IMG/VR virus record: IMGVR_UViG_3300045988_045637 | Location: 1-5,925 of that record | DNA length: 5,925 nt | From: a virus | Strand: one strand, 5' to 3' | Shown: piece by piece, positions 1 through 5,925 of the stretch | How the letters are laid out: each line of letters begins with the position of its first letter | Position numbering within the stretch: the stretch's first letter is position 1 | Notes under the pieces: model-generated | What the model saw: the letters and a program-made list of their open reading frames with translations, nothing else | What the model was told of the DNA's origin: nothing | The model's database searches: none | Position numbers and translations under genes: made by a program

Positions 1-119
1 ATTTTTTTTGTTACATAACCCGCAACATATCTATATGTTTCTGGAACCGCTTGTGCTATCTGTACTTGACCCATTCCCCATAGGTCTGCTAACCATTTAC
101 TGGTATAGTATCCGTTGTG
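1..119. repeat. Terminal redundancy of a circular genome (copy 1). Identical to 5807-5925.
   Basis: Hand alignment: a + 8 t + gttacataacccgcaacatatc...tccgttgtg at 1-119 matches 5807-5925 base for base. This implies a 5,806-nt circular unit. Confidence 0.95.
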
Positions 120-662
120 GTGAATCTTGTATAGATTTTCTAGGTCTTTTGGTCTCCATCCGTATAGAATCATGTGATAATGTGGTCTCGCTGTTTGTTC
201 TCCGTACTCACCGGCCACAAAATAGCGTAATTTGCCCCTGTAAGCCTTTCTGAGACGTTTTAAGAACTTTTGAATATCTTCATACAGCAAAATTTGAACA
301 CTACTAGGGAGCTTCTCTCCCGGCTTCCATGTGTACTGTACCTTTCGCATGATTTCACCTGTTTTTACTATCATGCCCGGTACATGGTCATCATCATAAG
401 TTAGCGTGATAAACCAGACTTCTTCTTTTGGATAGTCTCGTGCTTCCAGTTCGATTCTTGTCGTCCAATCTTCTCGTTGTCTGATTCTGCATCCAATACA
501 TTGCCCGCATGGAATTAACATGACTTTCGGATTATACATCAAATCTTCATATTTTAGCTGTTTCCCGCTTAGCTGTGAAAAGCGGGCGAGTGAATATACC
601 CGCCCGCTCTGCTCTCTATCGCCCGGGTTGTACAGCCTTATTAACGGCTTGTAACAACTCAT
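1..662 (-). CDS. VP4: Replication initiation protein VP4 (HUH rolling-circle endonuclease), 5' portion. It runs off the window start and continues at 5806 downward. The full CDS is 5449-5806 joined to 1-662 (1,020 nt, 339 aa).
   Basis: Manual translation from the ATG at 662-660: MSCYKPLIRLYNPGDRE...PCGQCIGCR...FITLTYD (RCR motif I, 396-413)...RPHYHMILYG (HUH motif II, 174-182)...YVAGYVTKK (two-tyrosine motif III, 6-29). The start codon overlaps the VP2 stop (ATGA, 659-662). AGGTGA lies about 9 nt upstream. Confidence 0.92.
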   Translation of the reverse strand, partial: MSCYKPLIRLYNPGDREQSGRVYSLARFSQLSGKQLKYEDLMYNPKVMLIPCGQCIGCRIRQREDWTTRIELEARDYPKEEVWFITLTYDDDHVPGMIVKTGEIMRKVQYTWKPGEKLPSSVQILLYEDIQKFLKRLRKAYRGKLRYFVAGEYGEQTARPHYHMILYGWRPKDLENLYKIHHNGYYTSKWLADLWGMGQVQIAQAVPETYRYVAGYVTKK

Positions 663-1531
663 TTTAGATAATCACCTGGCTTTCTTTTTGCGCCGTAGTC
701 TCCTGTTTTATTCTGCATTGGGTTTTCTGGTTTGTGTCCTACTTTGCTACTGCCTTTTGTTTTATTTGTGATATCTCCAATTGTTTTGTTTGTTTCGTTA
801 TCGATATTTGTTAGTGCTTTCATTAGGCCGTAAGGACTTAAATGTGTTTCACTTAGCATTTGATTCCAGCTTTGCGAAGCGTTATACCAATCTGATTTAC
901 TCCAACTTGTGCTGCTGTACGAGTTTGGAACAAATCCGTTGCTTCTGCTGACTCCTAGTGCGCTGCTGCTTGCTAGTCCCATGCTTGCTCCGCTGATTGT
1001 TCCTGCAGACCCTCCAGGTGTGCTTGCTCCACCGTTTGCAAATGCTAGAATTGGGTTTATACCTGCCTTTTTCATGTCCTCAACCGCTCTTTGATATGAT
1101 GTGTTGCTCATACGCTCTTGAAACTGTCTGTTTGCTAGTGCTTCGGCGCTGTTGTAATTCATTGCGGTTGTGTTTTCGATGTGGTTATATACGCCTTGCA
1201 TTATGGCTTGCATGGTGTTGTATCCCATCTGCTGAAGCATGCTTTTTTGGTTGTATTTTTGCTGTGCTATGCCCTCTGCGCTTTGATATCCATACGCTTG
1301 CTGTAAATATTTTGCGATTTGTTCGTCATTCGTACCGGATTGGCTCCCGCTTACGGATGCTCCACCGCCTTGGCTTACACTTCCTCCGCTGCTTTGTCCT
1401 GTTCCTTCGTTTCCCCAACCGCCAAAAGCGCCTGTAACGTTTTTTACTGCGCCTGTTATGCTTCCTATGCTTGTTGCGACATTGCCAAGTATGTTTACTC
1501 CTCTTAAAATTGCTCCCCAAGGAATTGCCAT
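659..1531 (-). CDS. VP2: DNA pilot / minor capsid protein VP2
   Basis: 290-aa ORF directly downstream of VP1. It has a hydrophobic Gly/Ser-rich N-terminus and the segment NTSYQRAVEDMKKAGINPILAF, which matches the conserved core I recall from microvirus pilot proteins. Its stop overlaps the Rep start. Confidence 0.85.
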   Translation of the reverse strand: MAIPWGAILRGVNILGNVATSIGSITGAVKNVTGAFGGWGNEGTGQSSGGSVSQGGGASVSGSQSGTNDEQIAKYLQQAYGYQSAEGIAQQKYNQKSMLQQMGYNTMQAIMQGVYNHIENTTAMNYNSAEALANRQFQERMSNTSYQRAVEDMKKAGINPILAFANGGASTPGGSAGTISGASMGLASSSALGVSRSNGFVPNSYSSTSWSKSDWYNASQSWNQMLSETHLSPYGLMKALTNIDNETNKTIGDITNKTKGSSKVGHKPENPMQNKTGDYGAKRKPGDYLK

Positions 1532-1539
1532 TTTAAAAT

Positions 1540-1560
1540 AGCCGGGTTTTTGGCCCGGCT
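1540..1560 (-). promoter_or_regulatory. Intercistronic hairpin between VP1 and VP2. Possibly a leaky terminator and/or a structure that bridges the SD and the start codon.
   Basis: Minus strand reads TAA-AGAAAGGAGGA-AGCCGGG-CCAAAAA-CCCGGCT-ATTTTAAA-ATG. The stem is 7 bp (6 G:C) with a 7-nt loop, followed by a short T run. Confidence 0.6.
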
Positions 1561-1571
1561 TCCTCCTTTCT

Positions 1572-3281
1572 TTACATTTTTTCCAGACCCGGCACGCTAT
1601 ACAGCGGCATACAGCGTGTTGTATTGTTCATTACTCGAATTGCTCCAAAAAATTGTGGCTCGCTCTGAACAATCAGTGTTCTTGCAATTTCTGTTTTGCC
1701 CTCGTTCATCCATTCTTGACTGAGTGTCGGTACCTTGTCGTAGTTGTCCGCATAGTGCCAGAAGTCCAGCGTTCCTTGTGCGTTACTCCGCATTTTGCCG
1801 CTTACTCTGTTCGGCTTCATGCGATAGTCGGCCCAGGCTTCTTGATAACCGAAGGTTTCATCATCTGTGCTCGTGCCAGTAAACATGATTTCCTTCTTCT
1901 TTACAGGCTGTTCGCCTAGATTTGCGAACTGCGGGAAGTAGTAGTCCAGTCTGTCTGAGCGGCTCCAGAACCTTTCTAAGCCCTGCTGGTAACTATGGTC
2001 GTGGCGTACACACATGACACCGATAACAAAGCCGTGCTCTTCAAAGCTCTTTGTAAAGGAACTTTCATTGATAGGTGTTACTGACATTGCACCTGTTTCA
2101 CCAATAGGTGTGTCGTTTTCGGTCTGCTGTCCGCTGGTCTGCACGATCTGATTAACATTCACGTGATAGCGTCCGCCACCTAGATACTCAGGCACCTGAA
2201 CCGTTTTGTCACTGATGCTTACGCCAAAAATTGCCCTTACCTGCTCACGGTATCGACTGCCGCCACGTGCCAGTGCTTCATAGTAGTGCTGAACTGCAAA
2301 AGCCTGTCGGAGTTGGTTGATGGTTGCCGCTTCGATTTTTGACAGGTCTGCGCCCAAGTATACTGCACTGCTTTCAGTGAGGCTATCATTTCCTTCGTTT
2401 ACGCCCAGTTTTACCGGGTTTCCTTCGCCTCCTGCTCCACCTACTAGCTGGATTCCTGCTGTTGCACTGTCAATTCCATTGAGGTAGTTTACTTCTGCAG
2501 ATTGGTTGATGTTTTTCAGTACTGTATCGCTGTATGGTCTTACAGGCGCATTCCCTGTCAGTCCGATTGTCACTTCCGGCCCTCGCTGAGGATACGGCAG
2601 ACACGATGAGAAATAATCGTGAAATTTGCTCACCGGTAGACAACGTGCGCCACTTACTGCATCTCTCAGAATCCCTTCTTCGTCACTGTCTTCGTTTAAA
2701 TCCGTATACTGAATCAGTGTTTCGTCTGTAAAGTTCGTCGCCGGATTTCCTACGTTTTGGTCTCTGAAAAATTCGTTCCAGATTTTCACATATGCCCGGA
2801 CTGGCAGTGCGTTTATGTACGTTATTCCGCTTCCTTCTTTTTCGTTGATTTTTGTCGGCACTCCCATGTAGTCCAGAATGCTTCCTTCTTTTGGCCCTTT
2901 CAGGTTTTCTTTTCCGTTTGTCTCTGCGTTTGATGCGATTTTGATTTTTGGCACTTCGTATGTTTTTGTTGGCATCCACGGTGCATCGTCTGCTTCTCCC
3001 ATGAAACGCTTGAAGTTGTCCCATAGAATTCTGTTAGGACAGTAGAAGTAATAAAAATCGATGTATGCATCGTCCATAACCGGAAATTTCGGTGTGCTCA
3101 TTCGGATGATCGCCGCGGTATTTACGCTGAAAGTATCGCCGGGTAATACTTCGTCAACGTAAAACGGGATGAGTTTTCCCGAGTCAAACGTTGTGAGAAT
3201 GTTCTGGTCTCTTTTGAATCGCGTTCGACTTACGTGCGTTTGCGGTACATTGTTGAAGTGCCTCTCGTTATTTCTGTTCAT
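1572..3281 (-). CDS. VP1: Major capsid protein VP1 (phiX174 F-like jelly-roll capsid protein)
   Basis: 569-aa ORF, the largest in the genome. The N-terminus ...RTRFKRDQNILTTFDSGKLIPFYVDEVLPGDTF...MSTPKFPVMDDAYIDFYYFYCPNRILWDNFKRFMGE matches the conserved gokushovirus VP1 pattern. Strong SD: AAGGAGGAAAGCA-ATG. Confidence 0.95.
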   Translation of the reverse strand: MNRNNERHFNNVPQTHVSRTRFKRDQNILTTFDSGKLIPFYVDEVLPGDTFSVNTAAIIRMSTPKFPVMDDAYIDFYYFYCPNRILWDNFKRFMGEADDAPWMPTKTYEVPKIKIASNAETNGKENLKGPKEGSILDYMGVPTKINEKEGSGITYINALPVRAYVKIWNEFFRDQNVGNPATNFTDETLIQYTDLNEDSDEEGILRDAVSGARCLPVSKFHDYFSSCLPYPQRGPEVTIGLTGNAPVRPYSDTVLKNINQSAEVNYLNGIDSATAGIQLVGGAGGEGNPVKLGVNEGNDSLTESSAVYLGADLSKIEAATINQLRQAFAVQHYYEALARGGSRYREQVRAIFGVSISDKTVQVPEYLGGGRYHVNVNQIVQTSGQQTENDTPIGETGAMSVTPINESSFTKSFEEHGFVIGVMCVRHDHSYQQGLERFWSRSDRLDYYFPQFANLGEQPVKKKEIMFTGTSTDDETFGYQEAWADYRMKPNRVSGKMRSNAQGTLDFWHYADNYDKVPTLSQEWMNEGKTEIARTLIVQSEPQFFGAIRVMNNTTRCMPLYSVPGLEKM

Positions 3282-3663
3282 TGCTTTCCTCCTTTTCTAC
3301 AGATACTTCTGCAACTTTTTTCTGATTTCGTTGGATTTCCATTGCCGCGGCTTGTGCTGTTGCTATCATGGCGTGATACTCGTGAATGTTTGTCGGCCAT
3401 TCCGTGATATCGATGATTTCATCTGTTTTTGCGCTGTCTGCCAGACTTTTGGCAAACTCAGGGTCAAAACTCGCTTTGCGGACAATGTTTTTGATGTCGC
3501 ACTCGTCTGCATAGCTTTCAATTTCAGCTTGAATGTCGATTGGTTCGGTTTCAATCAGCTTTTTTTCGCCTTTTTCGTCCTTGCCCCAGACGTACTGCTT
3601 GCGTAGTTTTTCGCCCGGATTTGAAAAGAAGGGCTTTCGCCCTTCCTCGTATCGTTTATTCAT
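3268..3663 (-). CDS. Putative internal scaffolding protein (VP3-like), 131 aa. This is the shortened version of track ORF 3268-3816.
   Basis: ATG at 3663 is preceded by GGGAGGG. It overlaps the upstream ORF's stop by 8 nt and the VP1 start by 14 nt. The protein is acidic and contains ADECDIKNIVRK, resembling the ..ECDIN.I..K motif I recall from gokushovirus VP3 scaffolds. The family assignment is from memory. Confidence 0.6.
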   Translation of the reverse strand: MNKRYEEGRKPFFSNPGEKLRKQYVWGKDEKGEKKLIETEPIDIQAEIESYADECDIKNIVRKASFDPEFAKSLADSAKTDEIIDITEWPTNIHEYHAMIATAQAAAMEIQRNQKKVAEVSVEKEESNEQK

Positions 3664-3898
3664 TCGGCTTGCCCTCCCAGACCTTATCCGGCTCGATGCT
3701 CTCAAATCGGCCGCTTTCATCGTCGAAGTTTGCGACGTGGTAGCCCTTGTAGTCCTCAGGCGACTGCCCAAGGAAGGTTTTTTCATCCTTTGCCATAATT
3801 GTGCACATCCGTGCAAACGTCTCGTTGCTCTTGCTTTCGCCGATGTAGCAGTAGCTTTTTGCTACGCTGTCGTAGATGCCATAGTATCCATGAATCAT
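3656..3898 (-). CDS. Small non-structural protein, gokushovirus VP5/ORF5-like
   Basis: 80-aa ORF with SD AAGGAGAAAAAAC-ATG. The pattern YDSVAKSY...FARM...SPEDYKGYHVANFDDESGRF resembles the YD.KA..Y / PEDY..(x)G.FDD.TG signature I recall from the small conserved gokushovirus protein encoded upstream of the structural genes. Confidence 0.6.
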   Translation of the reverse strand: MIHGYYGIYDSVAKSYCYIGESKSNETFARMCTIMAKDEKTFLGQSPEDYKGYHVANFDDESGRFESIEPDKVWEGKPNE

Positions 3899-3910
3899 GT
3901 TTTTTCTCCT

Positions 3911-3988
3911 TTACAGTCTGATGCCGCCCCGCATGGGTTTCTGGCTGAGGTTGATACTTTTCGTTTTTCGTGCCGTTACGTTGAACAT
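3911..3988 (-). CDS. Candidate 25-aa highly basic peptide (possible J/VP8-like DNA-packaging protein)
   Basis: Manual translation: MFNVTARKTKSINLSQKPMRGGIRL, with 6 K/R and no acidic residues. It fills an otherwise unexplained 97-nt gap. The ATG is 7 nt after the upstream TGA and its TAA lies immediately upstream of the next gene's SD. It has no SD of its own. Confidence 0.3.
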   Translation of the reverse strand: MFNVTARKTKSINLSQKPMRGGIRL

Positions 3989-3995
3989 ACGCTTG

Positions 3996-4241
3996 TCAGT
4001 GCGTGCCGGCATCCGCTGTCTGTGCTTCACTTGTGTACTCCCTTCTGATTAGCTCTAGCTCGATGTCGTTGGCCCATTTCTTCATAACCCAGATCCGGCT
4101 AATGATTTCTTCTGCATCTTTCAGTTCGGACACTTTCTTCATCATCTTGTATCCGGCTTCAATCTGCTTGTATAACCTTTCGGCTTCTAGCCTGAGTGTT
4201 TCTTCGGTCTGGTCTCTGACGTTCCATGTTTTAGTCAACAT
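3996..4241 (-). CDS. Hypothetical protein, 81 aa, predicted helical or coiled-coil
   Basis: ORF on the coding strand with charged, heptad-like composition (LRLEAERLYKQIEAGYKMMKKVSELKDAEEII). AAGGAGG lies upstream but 13 nt from the ATG. I recognised no motif. Confidence 0.55.
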   Translation of the reverse strand: MLTKTWNVRDQTEETLRLEAERLYKQIEAGYKMMKKVSELKDAEEIISRIWVMKKWANDIELELIRREYTSEAQTADAGTH

Positions 4242-4246
4242 TGTCT

Positions 4247-4351
4247 TTACTTTTCCTCCTTCAGAATGTGGTAAATCTCGTCCAGCTTTTCGAGGACGTT
4301 CTTAATTAGCTGGATTGCTTCCCTCAGGTCTTTGACCTTAATCAATGCCAT
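4247..4351 (-). CDS. Candidate 34-aa amphipathic helical peptide
   Basis: Manual translation: MALIKVKDLREAIQLIKNVLEKLDEIYHILKEEK. The ATG is 3 nt after the peptidase TAA with GGGGGTG upstream, and its TAA is 5 nt before the next ATG. It exactly fills the gap between 4241 and 4355. It is below the ORF-track size cutoff. Confidence 0.35.
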   Translation of the reverse strand: MALIKVKDLREAIQLIKNVLEKLDEIYHILKEEK

Positions 4352-4354
4352 GGG

Positions 4355-4738
4355 TTACACCCCCTTTCTGTATCGTTTTTCGCGCACATCAATGTGTGTG
4401 AAGTTTGTATATCTGACTATGCCGCCCTGTTCCATGATACTGTCCGCGTATTTTGCAACTTCTCTGCTGCTGTGTCCTTTCACTACGATGTCTGCTGCCA
4501 TTCCTTTGCAGTGGTAGCTGTTTGATGCTCCGTTTACTTTGCTGTTCCAGTTTGGTGTACGGTATCCGCTGCTGATAATGACCGGTGCGTTAAAGTGATT
4601 TCTGATCGTTTCTAAGATTGCGAGTAGCTCAGGTGACCATAAAAATTCTGTTGTTTTGTCTTTGCATCTAAACTCTTCTGCTTTGAAGTGTTGCGTTAGT
4701 CGGTCGTTGTTTGTTTGGTTTAAGATTGGTGTACTCAT
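4355..4738 (-). CDS. Zinc D-Ala-D-Ala-carboxypeptidase-type cell-wall peptidase (Peptidase M15, M15_3/M15A-like). Candidate lysin.
   Basis: 127-aa ORF with SD AAAGGTGATAAAAA-ATG. Motifs: FKAEEFRC, SGYRTPNWN, SYHCKGMAADI (H76, D83) and FTHIDV (H115). This is the H-x6-D...H zinc triad layout of the small phage/bacterial M15 peptidases. Confidence 0.8.
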   Translation of the reverse strand: MSTPILNQTNNDRLTQHFKAEEFRCKDKTTEFLWSPELLAILETIRNHFNAPVIISSGYRTPNWNSKVNGASNSYHCKGMAADIVVKGHSSREVAKYADSIMEQGGIVRYTNFTHIDVREKRYRKGV

Positions 4739-4793
4739 TTTTTATCACCTTTTAGCTCATAAAATTTATATGTTTCACGCTGGTCCCTTTTCG

Positions 4794-4973
4794 TCACATC
4801 CACATTATTTTGTTTTCTTTTTCTAGCTGGTGGATTCTTTGTCTTGACAGTTGGCAAGTCCTGTTATCCCAGCACCTCATCTTCTTGTTGTAAGTATAAG
4901 GGAACTTTATTCTGTTGTCAATTGGCGATTTGTACCATTTTACCTTTTTGTTTTCGGTGTATTCGTACATCAT
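4794..4973 (-). CDS. Hypothetical protein, 59 aa, first ORF after promoter P1. This is the shortened version of track ORF 4794-5027.
   Basis: ATGATG at 4973-4968 is preceded by AGAGAGGTAAGCAAT. The track's start at 5027 is a TTG that is actually part of the -35 box TTGACA. The protein is K/N/Y-rich with no recognised motif, and a second promoter lies inside the ORF. Confidence 0.45.
   Translation of the reverse strand: MMYEYTENKKVKWYKSPIDNRIKFPYTYNKKMRCWDNRTCQLSRQRIHQLEKENKIMWM
4893..4921 (-). promoter_or_regulatory. Promoter P2, sigma-70/sigma-A type, internal to the 59-aa ORF
   Basis: Minus strand: TTGACA (4921-4916), 17-nt spacer ACAGAATAAAGTTCCCT, then TATACT (4898-4893). It sits about 155 nt upstream of the peptidase start codon. 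Confidence 0.6.
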
Positions 4974-4998
4974 ATTGCTTACCTCTCTTTCTGACTCT

Positions 4999-5027
4999 AT
5001 TGTATCACATTTCTTTACGTTTGTCAA
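4999..5027 (-). promoter_or_regulatory. Promoter P1, sigma-70/sigma-A type with extended -10
   Basis: Minus strand: TTGACA (5027-5022), 17-nt spacer AACGTAAAGAAATGTGA, then TACAAT (5004-4999), with TG at the extended -10 position. An A/T-rich UP-like tract (GAAAAATTTT) lies just upstream, and an SD plus ATG about 20-30 nt downstream. Confidence 0.75.
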
Positions 5028-5053
5028 GTCCTCTGCAGAAAATTTTTCATTAG

Positions 5054-5104
5054 ATGGCCGCCGTTGCGCGCTACGCGGCGCAACTTCCAGCGAAGCGCGG
5101 CCGT
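5054..5104. other. GC-rich compound fold (predicted three-way junction)
   Basis: The outer stem pairs 5054-5061 with 5097-5104 (GGCCGC/GCGGCC core plus A:T and one G:T). Inner hairpin 1 is GTTGCGC (5063-5069) / GCGCAAC (5078-5084) with an 8-nt loop. The inner mini-hairpin is GCGAAGC (5090-5096). About 72% G+C by hand count, in an otherwise AT-rich spacer. Confidence 0.6.
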
Positions 5105-5140
5105 GACTTTCCCGCTCGATTCCGGACTGCTTCTATTGGG

Positions 5141-5243
5141 TTTTCAACATTTTCAACATAGTTTTCAACATTTCAACATTGTTAAACTTTAGCACAATAG
5201 AGTGTTTCAACAATTCAACAAGTTTTCAACAAATCTTTCAACA
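5141..5243 (+). repeat. Iteron array: 8 same-orientation copies of (T)TTCAACA in two clusters of four
   Basis: The TTCAACA core ends at 5149, 5158, 5170, 5178, 5212, 5220, 5231 and 5243. Four copies are the exact 9-mer TTTTCAACA (5141-5149, 5150-5158, 5162-5170, 5223-5231). Start-to-start spacing is 8-12 nt within clusters. The larger module AGTTTTCAACA...TTTCAACATTGTT occurs twice (5160-5183 and 5221-5248). Confidence 0.9.
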
Positions 5244-5288
5244 TTGTTTTTTGTTTATTTTTAACGCTCTAACGTTTTAAAATTATAG

Positions 5289-5305
5289 TTTTCAACTTTT
5301 CCACA
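5289..5305 (+). promoter_or_regulatory. Degenerate iteron TTTTCAACT overlapping by one base a DnaA-box-consensus 9-mer TTTTCCACA
   Basis: TTTTCCACA at 5297-5305 fits the relaxed DnaA box consensus TTWTNCACA at all 9 positions. TTTTCAACT is at 5289-5297. Both are in the same orientation as the iteron array. Confidence 0.5.
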
Positions 5306-5341
5306 TACCCTACTACTACGACTACAACAAGTTATATTATA

Positions 5342-5391
5342 ATACGTGCGCACGCGTGCGCGTGTAGTTTTCGCGTGCACGTGTGTGCGCG
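5342..5391. repeat. Two alternating purine-pyrimidine CG/TG tracts (25 nt and 20 nt) with nested palindromes
   Basis: Perfect R-Y alternation over 5342-5366 and 5372-5391, separated by GTTTT. Palindromes: CGTGCGCACG (5345-5354), GCGCACGCGTGCGC (5348-5361), CGTGCACG (5374-5381) and CACGTG (5378-5383). Confidence 0.85.
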
Positions 5392-5404
5392 ATTAGAATA
5401 ATAA

Positions 5405-5436
5405 AGCCCAGTACCTTACTTGATAGGTACTGGGCT
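5405..5436 (-). terminator. Rho-independent terminator downstream of Rep, marking the end of the single transcription unit
   Basis: Perfect 12-bp stem AGCCCAGTACCT / AGGTACTGGGCT with an 8-nt loop, 12 nt after the Rep TAA. On the minus strand it is followed by TTTATTATTCT. Confidence 0.75.
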
Positions 5437-5448
5437 AGGTGACACCAA

Positions 5449-5925
5449 TTATAAAATACCACGCTTTTTCGTTTGTTTTTTGGTGACGCGTTCTTTTGTC
5501 TCTAGGACTGTTTTATAGTCCTGTTCTTCTAGCTGTAGACGCTTCTGCTCTATGGCGTTTTTCTGTCTGTTTTGTTTAATTCTCCACAGTCTTTGTGGGT
5601 TTTCTGCTTCCATCTGCTTTTCGTAGTATCTTGGAATTTGCGCCCGTTTTCCGTTGGTGCATTGAATGTAGCCTTGCCGCCAGATTTCTGCTTTGTGTTC
5701 TTGGTAGTAGTGGTCTCCAAGACCTGGTTTTAGGCTCATGCAAGCAAACGGTTTCGTTTGTCCCAATTCGTAGTACGCATTGGCTTTCTTTCCGTCTATC
5801 TCGTACATTTTTTTTGTTACATAACCCGCAACATATCTATATGTTTCTGGAACCGCTTGTGCTATCTGTACTTGACCCATTCCCCATAGGTCTGCTAACC
5901 ATTTACTGGTATAGTATCCGTTGTG
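5449..5925 (-). CDS. VP4: Replication initiation protein VP4, 3' portion. The 143-aa track ORF 5449-5880 is only the part downstream of internal Met197. 5807-5925 duplicates 1-119.
   Basis: Open frame continues upstream of 5880 to the window end and is in frame with 1-662. It contains the catalytic motif YRYVAGYVTKK (5812-5835) and a basic C-terminal tail. TAA stop at 5449-5451. Confidence 0.92.
   Translation of the reverse strand, partial: HNGYYTSKWLADLWGMGQVQIAQAVPETYRYVAGYVTKKMYEIDGKKANAYYELGQTKPFACMSLKPGLGDHYYQEHKAEIWRQGYIQCTNGKRAQIPRYYEKQMEAENPQRLWRIKQNRQKNAIEQKRLQLEEQDYKTVLETKERVTKKQTKKRGIL
5807..5925. repeat. Terminal redundancy of a circular genome (copy 2). Identical to 1-119.
   Basis: Same hand alignment as for 1-119. 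The reading frame of Rep is preserved across the junction: the ATG at 5880 corresponds to position 74, and 662-74=588 is divisible by 3. Confidence 0.95.

Follow-up and report, generated by a model that had tools for sequence, protein, structure and literature searches.

An oriC-like unit and a candidate Rep nick site in the predicted replication-control region of a gokushovirus

In the dnaA-dnaN origins of bacteria, exemplified by B. subtilis incC and C. difficile oriC2 and by the basal unwinding system of Richardson and Murray, DnaA boxes form an array of one orientation and are followed by tandem boxes 8 nt apart, a 4-nt spacer, CTA-repeat trios on the strand that carries TTWTNCACA, and an AT-rich run. 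The top strand of the unwinding core reads TTATCCACA-AATCCACA-GGCC-CTACTATTACTTCTACTA-TTTTTTATA in B. subtilis (PMC8287927 Table S1) and TTATTAACA-TTATCAACA-ACAC-CTACTACTATTACTACTA in C. difficile (PMC8287927 Table S1; PMC7561715). The viral-strand origin of phiX174 occupies 30 nt inside gene A and is nicked between G4305 and A4306 (the GenBank record annotates the origin at A4306), with CAACTTG before the nick and ATATTAATAACACTATAGACCACC after it. For other microvirus clades, unrelated conserved hairpins have been reported and their role left open (PMC9865509); in the literature we searched, from which subscription journals were mostly absent and in which an earlier description could therefore have been missed, we found no gokushovirus origin hairpin, no microvirus DnaA boxes or trios, and no negative-sense microviruses. 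Here we analyze the non-coding region of a 5,925-nt stretch of viral DNA (the window: positions 1 to 5,925 of IMG/VR record IMGVR_UViG_3300045988_045637), which is the genome of a gokushovirus belonging to a group known from human, pig, and monkey gut. Its architecture, conservation, stem covariation, homology to bacterial origins, strand placement, and composition flip were computed directly from this and related genomes. From these sequence comparisons, we put at roughly 70% the probability that 4974-5448 is a composite replication-control region, made up of an oriC-like unit (Unit A, 5141-5344), a rolling-circle unit (Unit B, 5335-5447), and the promoter of the gene block, with packaging of the strand antisense to the genes predicted. 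A sequence-only reading of the window had proposed a replication-control module here, unusual for a rolling-circle microvirus, and our results support that proposal.

The unwinding core of the window, TTTTCAAC-TTTTCCACA-TACC-CTACTACTACGACTACAACAA-G-TTATATTATAATA, has the same order, strand, 8-nt box spacing, and 4-nt spacer as the cores of B. subtilis and C. difficile. We scanned a 27-nt phage-derived pattern, TCAACTTTTCMAC-N5-CTACTACTA, against 185,579 genomes (one per bacterial species) and retrieved 40 exact matches, where ~0.1 would be expected by chance according to our own calculation. Nearly all of them lie in Clostridia (Oscillospiraceae, Ruminococcaceae, Ruminococcus, Lachnospiraceae, and “Eubacteriales”), most on contigs far exceeding the size of a microvirus genome, and none of the 40 loci encodes VP1 or Rep. 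Instead, dnaA upstream and/or dnaN downstream is found on the motif strand at 38 loci, with both genes at 30; one of the remaining two has dnaA upstream on the opposite strand, and the stretch fetched for the other contains neither gene. At the two loci tested, DnaA and the beta clamp are confirmed by Pfam. The likeness extends beyond the core: TTCAACA, the repeat unit of the phage region, occurs at ~39 times background upstream of the bacterial cores, in sequence that was not used for their selection, and the phage unit is colinear with six bacterial origins over ~210 nt, with 61 invariant columns and alignment z-scores of up to 19. By these sequence comparisons, Unit A resembles a Clostridial origin, most closely those of Oscillospiraceae and Ruminococcaceae, and was probably captured from a host. 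Three metagenome-assembled genomes outside Clostridia also carry the core: L138 (Blastocatellia) in dnaA-dnaN context, and L148 (Fusobacteriota) and L155 (Alistipes), for which the stretches fetched show dnaA upstream and no dnaN; in L148, dnaA lies on the opposite strand. These three may represent real conservation or mis-binned contigs.

Upstream of the core, two clusters of four repeats had been described, and we find them as eight copies of TTCAACA between 5143 and 5243, all on the plus strand. Elsewhere in the genome the heptamer occurs once, and shuffled sequences contain 1.07 copies on expectation and four at most, none of 200 reaching nine. Array 1 (5141-5178, plus strand) consists of four direct boxes, three of them TTTTCAACA and one ATTTCAACA, and each of the 15 aligned relatives keeps it. 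With a single mismatch, the repeat TTTTCAACA is a DnaA box, and in some relatives TTTTCCACA occupies the equivalent positions. A variable spacer (5178-5203) with a partial inverted box, ATTGTTAAA, that pairs with 5206-5214 separates it from the four direct boxes of array 2 (5204-5243); an inverted box, TGTTGAAAA, is similarly placed in bacterial origins. A T-rich linker (5244-5288), similar in length to that of bacterial origins, leads on to the core, and the A+T content of 5244-5300, given earlier as about 80%, measures 80.7%. The repeats had been taken for iterons of the plasmid or circular Rep-encoding single-stranded (CRESS) DNA virus type that serve a phage initiator. That interpretation is not supported, as the same arrays stand in bacterial origins that are free of phage VP1 and Rep genes; the repeats are therefore best read as host-type DnaA boxes, and 5141-5344 as a look-alike of a dnaA-dnaN origin.

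We compared the core with the published search rules for basal unwinding systems of oriC (Pelliciari et al. 2021), which call for a DnaA box with at most two mismatches to TTATCCACA, optionally an adjacent second box with at most four, a gap of 0-16 nt (typically 4 nt) from box to first trio, three or more trios whose central base is A (consensus 3'-GAT-5') opposite the TTATCCACA strand, and an AT-rich unwinding element beyond them. The tandem boxes of the window (5289-5305, plus strand) are TTTTCAACT (5289-5297, three mismatches) and TTTTCCACA (5297-5305, one mismatch), 8 nt from start to start in the arrangement of boxes 6 and 7 of B. subtilis, and they are invariant among the aligned relatives. 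The second of them had been identified as a DnaA box and is an exact TTWTNCACA. The spacer TACC (5306-5309) is the counterpart of the GC-rich 4-nt spacer of bacterial origins, and it is 4 nt long in the window and in all 16 gut-clade relatives. The (TAC)n-like segment listed earlier as a feature of its own is present as CTACTACTACGACTAC from 5310 on, yet it is no separate curiosity: CTA CTA CTA CGA CTA CAA CAA (5310-5330, plus strand) is the complement of DnaA-trios and starts 4 nt past the box, as in the oriC of B. subtilis and C. difficile. The trio strand (minus) reads 3'-GAT GAT GAT GCT GAT GTT GTT-5', with three consensus trios in the lead and the same orientation as in these two bacteria. 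Beyond the trios lies an AT-only 13-mer, a candidate DNA-unwinding element; it exists as described but spans 5332-5344, one base off the earlier placement at 5331-5343, and an AT-rich run likewise trails the trios in every bacterial origin retrieved. The sequence rules of the published search program are all passed, and shuffles of the window never yield the arrangement. The genomic setting departs from the published description, in that the unit lies not beside a chromosomal dnaA or dnaN but between the promoter and rep of a microvirus of 5806 nt. The unit copies an oriC core, or would work like one, and is no chromosomal origin.

An alignment of the non-coding regions of relatives, the check that the sequence-only reading had called for, shows most elements to be conserved. 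Among 15 relatives, the invariant blocks are the two four-box arrays, TTTTCAACTTTTCCAC, and CTACTACTAC..CTACAACAAGTTA followed by the AT run. The segment 5140-5448 is ~82% identical in relatives whose genomes are ~73% identical overall (the value for GenBank relatives), which argues that the region is under selection, and the oriC-like unit is better conserved than the genes. At the junction of trios and AT run, CTACAACAAGTTA (5322-5334 in the window) is invariant in 15 of 15 aligned phage relatives and absent from the bacterial origins, and is thus phage-specific.

The core occurs in at least 120 IMG/VR contigs, nearly all of 5.1-6.2 kb, and in 47 GenBank phage records; 119 of the 121 core-bearing IMG/VR contigs analyzed are microviruses. 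The two others (L195, from a 23.6-kb contig, and L251, of 12.1 kb) carry the oriC core with neither VP1 nor Rep and are probably bacterial origin fragments classed as viral. We found no plasmid carrying the unit among those searched. Other microvirus lineages lack it, including other lineages whose nick hairpin, described below, is antisense to the genes, and we dropped the idea that the unit generally accompanies antisense origins when small antisense lineages proved to be without it. A minority of genomes (MG945388, KX513876, and two IMG/VR contigs) carry the unit in reverse orientation with respect to genes and nick hairpin: in MG945388 (L167, 1000-1480), it is inverted in place with its AT run pointing away from the nick hairpin, and in KX513876 (L168, 5370-5637), the inverted unit lies between VP2 and VP4. 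A GC-rich hairpin, also described below, keeps its place next to the nick hairpin in these inverted arrangements. These inversions suggest that the unit acts as a self-contained, double-stranded, orientation-independent module, and they argue against a strand-specific role on virion DNA. KX513876 had suggested that the melt site always faces the nick hairpin, with DnaA opening the Rep site; MG945388 contradicts this.

Four roles had been offered for the region: a Rep-recognized origin, a complementary-strand origin, a site of host-DnaA recruitment or titration, and a maintenance element. Recruitment of host DnaA fits best. A variant of that role, in which the unit is a DnaA sink or sensor that titrates host DnaA to stall host initiation or lets DnaA regulate the nearby phage promoter, draws on the roughly ten DnaA-type boxes per phage genome, on a strong promoter only 114 nt away, and on B. 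subtilis, where box clusters outside oriC are known to titrate DnaA or to regulate. For such a role, boxes would suffice, yet the parts of the unit that vary least are those that unwinding alone requires (trios, fixed 4-nt spacer, and AT-only run), and both the distance and the orientation of the promoter shift when the unit inverts. We therefore consider a pure sink or sensor rather unlikely and prefer to read Unit A as an unwinding module.

At the other end of the region, the sequence-only reading saw a terminator hairpin for rep. The hairpin is there, as a perfect 12-bp stem (5405-5436, plus strand), but it is a better candidate for the nick site of Rep itself. Its loop is TACTTGAT, with the predicted nick between G5422 and A5423, and it is followed by a conserved 3' flank, TAGGTGACACCA (5436-5447), a candidate “key” sequence for Rep binding; the rep stop codon (5449-5451, minus strand) abuts this motif. 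ACTTGAT (5418-5424) matches the phiX174 nick heptamer (ACTTG before the nick, AT after it) at seven of seven positions, and TAGGTGACACC in the flank resembles the TATAGACCACC block of phiX174 (of the form TAG..GAC.ACC), at a similar distance from the nick. There is no second copy of the nick motif in the genome. The Rep of the window (VP4) matches PF23343 and contains the motifs FITLTY, HYHMILYG, and YVAGYVTKK; it is homologous to the HUH Rep of phiX174, whose gpA likewise has a two-tyrosine motif. With the phiX174 heptamer and a homologous HUH Rep in the same genome, the stem-loop is best read as the Rep nick site and is our best candidate for it. Unlike the phiX174 site, it is carried by the loop of a hairpin whose stem covaries, lies in non-coding DNA beside the rep stop codon, and is antisense to the genes.

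The stem-loop is found across gokushoviruses. When the region was searched with BLAST, small and very distant microviruses (from sea squirts, bees, birds, peat, and blackflies) gave short matches, every one on 5403-5448, and the three that we inspected have a different stem sequence, the loop (T)TACTTGAT, and the flank TAGGTGACACCA. The pattern ACTTGAT-N6-16-TAGGTGACACC occurs in at least 120 IMG/VR contigs, and a 45-nt consensus matched 430 GenBank phage records, including the cultured Chlamydia phage Chp2, where it lies on the coding strand. The 101 unique versions comprise 65 different stems, all of which fold (mean 10.5 bp). In 83 of the versions, the bases on either side of the predicted nick, G and A, are unpaired. 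In an independent alignment, both sides of the stem change in 10 of 11 pairs, with a covariation score of 0.309 against 0.127 ± 0.019 in 500 shuffles, none of which scores as high, and no more than 0.104 when the register is slid.

Some further observations concern this motif. Within the flank, GGTGACACC (5438-5446) is the near-palindrome GGTGNCACC, and in many genomes another copy, GGTGTC, lies inverted 5-20 nt downstream and would fold a second small hairpin past the nick hairpin. MG945388, KX513876, and MG945382 (L169, 1000-1100) carry a variant nick hairpin with the loop ..CCTTGTC.. and the flank GGTGACAC, GATGACAC, or TTGACACC. Upstream of the capsid gene of Spiroplasma phage SpV4 (L126, ~1641-1680), AAACTTGATAAGCAAGGTTTAGGTGATTTAG resembles the nick motif (ACTTGAT ... 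TAGGTGA) with a weak stem. The canonical hairpin motif was not found on either strand of Bdellovibrio phage phiMH2K (L124, NC_002643).

With gene strand assigned by tblastn, the nick motif lies on the coding strand in 103 of 124 genomes and is antisense to the genes in 21, the window included; unlike the viral-strand origin of phiX174, the site thus stands off the coding strand here and in 20 other genomes. The 21 belong to at least four separate lineages, grouped by nearest-neighbor comparison of VP1. Base composition follows the motif. Over whole genomes, the A-T skew of coding strands ranges from +0.32 to +0.48 in the antisense genomes and from -0.30 to +0.22 in the rest, and at four-fold sites the coding strand has T 0.46 and A 0.21 with a coding-strand motif vs. 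A 0.49 and T 0.12 with an antisense motif. The ranges of four-fold skew are disjoint (-0.85 to +0.18 in ordinary genomes vs. +0.33 to +0.77 in antisense ones; Mann-Whitney p = 6e-13), and every antisense lineage is flipped relative to its nearest ordinary relatives, as in L053 (+0.33; neighbors -0.56 to -0.79). On the motif strand, both classes are equally T-rich, and a T-rich virion strand is known as a mark of phages with single-stranded DNA (ssDNA). A rolling-circle nick sets which strand is displaced and packaged, and genomes with an antisense motif are for that reason predicted to package the strand complementary to their mRNAs; their composition suggests that the virion strand itself has switched. 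The virion DNA of the window is, on this evidence, probably antisense to its genes, which would make it a negative-sense microvirus. If the plus strand is nicked and extended, rolling-circle synthesis would run head-on to the transcription of every gene, the opposite of the situation in ordinary microviruses.

It may be argued that the hairpin at 5405-5436 is the terminator of rep and nothing else, that the nick lies elsewhere on the coding strand, and that the virion is positive-sense, which to our knowledge is the rule for described microviruses. Read on the minus strand, the hairpin is indeed a 12-bp stem followed by TTATTATTCT that scores as a terminator after rep, and phiMH2K has an A-rich coding strand with no recognizable motif. 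The T-run, however, is missing in several relatives and in genomes with the motif on the coding strand, which are the majority. Loop and flank are conserved to the nucleotide across a family in which VP1 identity is only ~45-50%, the genome offers no second motif as an alternative nick site, and the four-fold flip tracks the motif strand in at least four lineages. A role as terminator only is improbable on this evidence, and we retain the stem-loop as the predicted nick site.

Between the two units, the tracts of alternating CG/TG noted earlier are present (5345-5391) and pair with each other as a long GC-rich hairpin of ~28 bp (5335-5400, plus strand), just upstream of the nick hairpin on the nicked strand. 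Folded jointly, the two hairpins reach -36.6 kcal/mol (z = -8.1), and relatives keep a stem of ~20 bp despite different sequences (z = -2.6 to -5.4). In rolling-circle plasmids, single-strand origins are placed just upstream of the nick, and the position of the GC hairpin would make it the last DNA to be displaced. We tentatively regard it as a candidate complementary-strand origin or cruciform; the likeness to the single-strand origins of plasmids lies in a long hairpin similarly placed, and we recognized no consensus of such origins in the phage.

The role of complementary-strand origin on incoming ssDNA could instead fall to Unit A, through DnaD acting on its TnnT strand or through a hairpin DnaA box that assembles a primosome. 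The predicted virion strand reads CTACTACTA, with T at every third base, DnaD is said to recognize a strand of this kind, and the partial inverted box could provide a double-stranded box within ssDNA; Masai and Arai have reportedly found that DnaA-box hairpins can assemble a primosome in E. coli. Relative to the nick strand, though, the unit is found both ways round, so that either strand may end up in the virion, and a signal that depends on the strand would not be expected to put up with this; the GC hairpin keeps its position at the nick site and suits the role better, which makes the proposal very improbable. That the repeats are after all true iterons bound by the phage Rep, with the whole region a Rep-only double-strand origin of the CRESS/pMV158 kind, is hardly credible: the direct repeats share a strand with a nick-type stem-loop and iteron-plus-hairpin origins exist in other HUH replicons, but the same arrays stand in bacterial dnaA-dnaN spacers with no phage genes, lie at least 160 nt from the hairpin, are inverted relative to it in some relatives, and are lacking in other gokushoviruses that have the hairpin and a homologous Rep.

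The reading we prefer is therefore that of an oriC-like unit joined to a rolling-circle unit, and it would work as follows. Rep (HUH, YVAGYVTKK) would nick the plus strand at G5422/A5423, and the nicked strand would be rolled off and packaged. On the double-stranded replicative form (RF), host DnaA-ATP would fill the ten boxes, spread onto the trio strand, and melt the 13-mer, where the helicase-loading machinery of the host would enter. The outcome could be DnaA-driven amplification of RF before Rep accumulates or a plasmid-like carriage tied to the host cell cycle; alternatively, the neighboring Rep site would be opened. As a tentative extension, which we consider possible though short of an even chance, a large clade of gokushoviruses from the mammalian gut captured the unwinding core of the origin of its Clostridial host for DnaA-driven, minichromosome-like replication or maintenance of RF, a path to long-term carriage without integration, and this clade and at least three other lineages flipped their Rep origin to yield negative-sense virions.

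Several points weigh against this reading. Shared DnaA specificity may have produced part of the resemblance to bacterial origins by convergence rather than capture. The second box cluster, which lies upstream of dnaA in the origins of B. subtilis and C. difficile, is absent in the phage, and this makes autonomous firing uncertain. Trios 4, 6, and 7 deviate from GAT, and the AT-only element is just 13 nt long and leads directly into the GC hairpin. The hairpin genomes were chosen by an exact motif pattern, and the conservation of loop and flank is thus partly given by construction, although that of stem, strand, and skew is not. The hairpin may serve as both nick site and rep terminator, roles that are not exclusive. 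The coding strand of the cultured phage phiMH2K has A 0.45, T 0.23, and G 0.07 at four-fold sites (A-T +0.31), like the antisense class, with no recognizable motif, and composition is consequently no proven proxy for the packaged strand. DnaA binding, unwinding, the position of the nick, and the packaged polarity are themselves predictions from sequence.

Comparison with known replicons sets the locus apart from each of them. Unlike a bacterial dnaA-dnaN origin, the phage unit resides on a 5.8-kb rolling-circle ssDNA phage with neither dnaA nor dnaN adjacent, has only three consensus trios before degenerate ones and a short melt element abutting a GC hairpin, and contains the invariant CTACAACAAGTTA. 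Stem-loop origins of CRESS-DNA viruses and pMV158 likewise have a nick site in a hairpin loop and direct repeats nearby, but the phage repeats are DnaA boxes of the host type that lie far from the hairpin and can be inverted against it, and the nick motif is unrelated to the CRESS nonanucleotide. With the iteron theta origins of pSC101, F, P1, and R6K, the region shares DnaA boxes, an AT-rich region, and direct repeats, as well as a dependence on host DnaA that is predicted here; it has no plasmid-type initiator (of the RepA, Pi, or RepE type), its only initiator being an HUH rolling-circle Rep, and its repeats are spaced 8-12 nt apart and are themselves DnaA boxes accompanied by trios, rather than 17-22-bp Rep iterons. 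Nor are the repeats specific to the replicon, as theta iterons are, since many Clostridial chromosomal origins have them too. The oriC plasmids (minichromosomes) are alike in placing a chromosomal-origin segment on a small circle, and negative-sense ssDNA viruses, such as Anelloviridae, are alike in the predicted complementarity of the virion strand to the mRNAs, with hosts from a different realm and a different Rep.

The genome as a whole is complete and circularly permuted, as indicated by an exact 119-nt terminal repeat (window 1-119 = 5807-5925) that leaves 5806 nt, and the rep gene spans the circle junction. All real genes lie on the minus strand of the window: the VP1 capsid gene (Phage_F, E = 3e-138), VP2, a Chp2-type scaffold, VP5, an M15 peptidase, the 339-aa HUH Rep, and small unknown open reading frames (ORFs). 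The gene block has a sigma-70-type promoter (4999-5027, minus strand), with TTGACA at 5027-5022, a 17-nt spacer, and a TG-extended TACAAT ending at 4999 (11 of 12 consensus matches), and a -35 of the TGTCAA type recurs among aligned relatives. This promoter falls within the supposed TTG start (5027) of a 77-aa ORF (4794-5027, minus strand). The true start of the first gene, judged by sequence, is probably an ATG near 4973 preceded by GAGAGG, with a product of ~59 aa that has no Pfam match. Because the promoter sits inside the supposed TTG-start ORF, the non-coding region, given earlier as 5028-5448, begins at about 4974, while its right border at 5448 stays in place.

Within the region, the GC-rich segment at 5054-5104 (plus strand) had been described as a three-way fold, a specific structure that our analysis leaves unsupported: its folding is that of shuffled sequence (z = -0.27; 73 of 200 shuffles fold equally well), and in the alignment of non-coding regions it is conserved in one close relative only (L012), with few GenBank matches extending there. 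Searches with Rfam covariance models for structured RNA gave two chance-level matches only (E = 0.55 and 0.92). An XerCD/dif site at 5331-5356, suggested by GTGCGCA...TTATA, matches no better than shuffles, and a search for a 28-nt dif-like sequence of the kind found in enterobacterial gokushovirus prophages returned a best match to E. coli/B. subtilis dif with 11 of 28 mismatches, which is the level of shuffles and lies outside the region. Spo0A boxes were considered, as TGTTGAA resembles TGTCGAA, but the CG core is lacking, and the candidate was dropped, by reasoning only, after the match to oriC.

The stem-loop provides a family-wide candidate for the gokushovirus origin, resolved to a predicted phosphodiester bond, where neither the sequence-only reading nor the literature we searched offered a mapped origin. 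If the reading of Unit A is true, a DnaA-dependent module of chromosomal type on a rolling-circle ssDNA phage would be a new viral entry into host replication control, and such an oriC-like module could explain the persistent carriage of gut microviruses. The unit also provides a host lead, to Clostridia like Oscillospiraceae or Ruminococcaceae, for a virus group that is abundant, uncultured, and represented by database entries with no recorded host. The strand of the motif together with the four-fold A/T bias gives a quick computational test of polarity. Antisense packaging, if true, would alter genome annotation, the reading of strand-aware libraries, and models of mutation bias, and negative-sense virions would overturn the positive-sense rule for microviruses.

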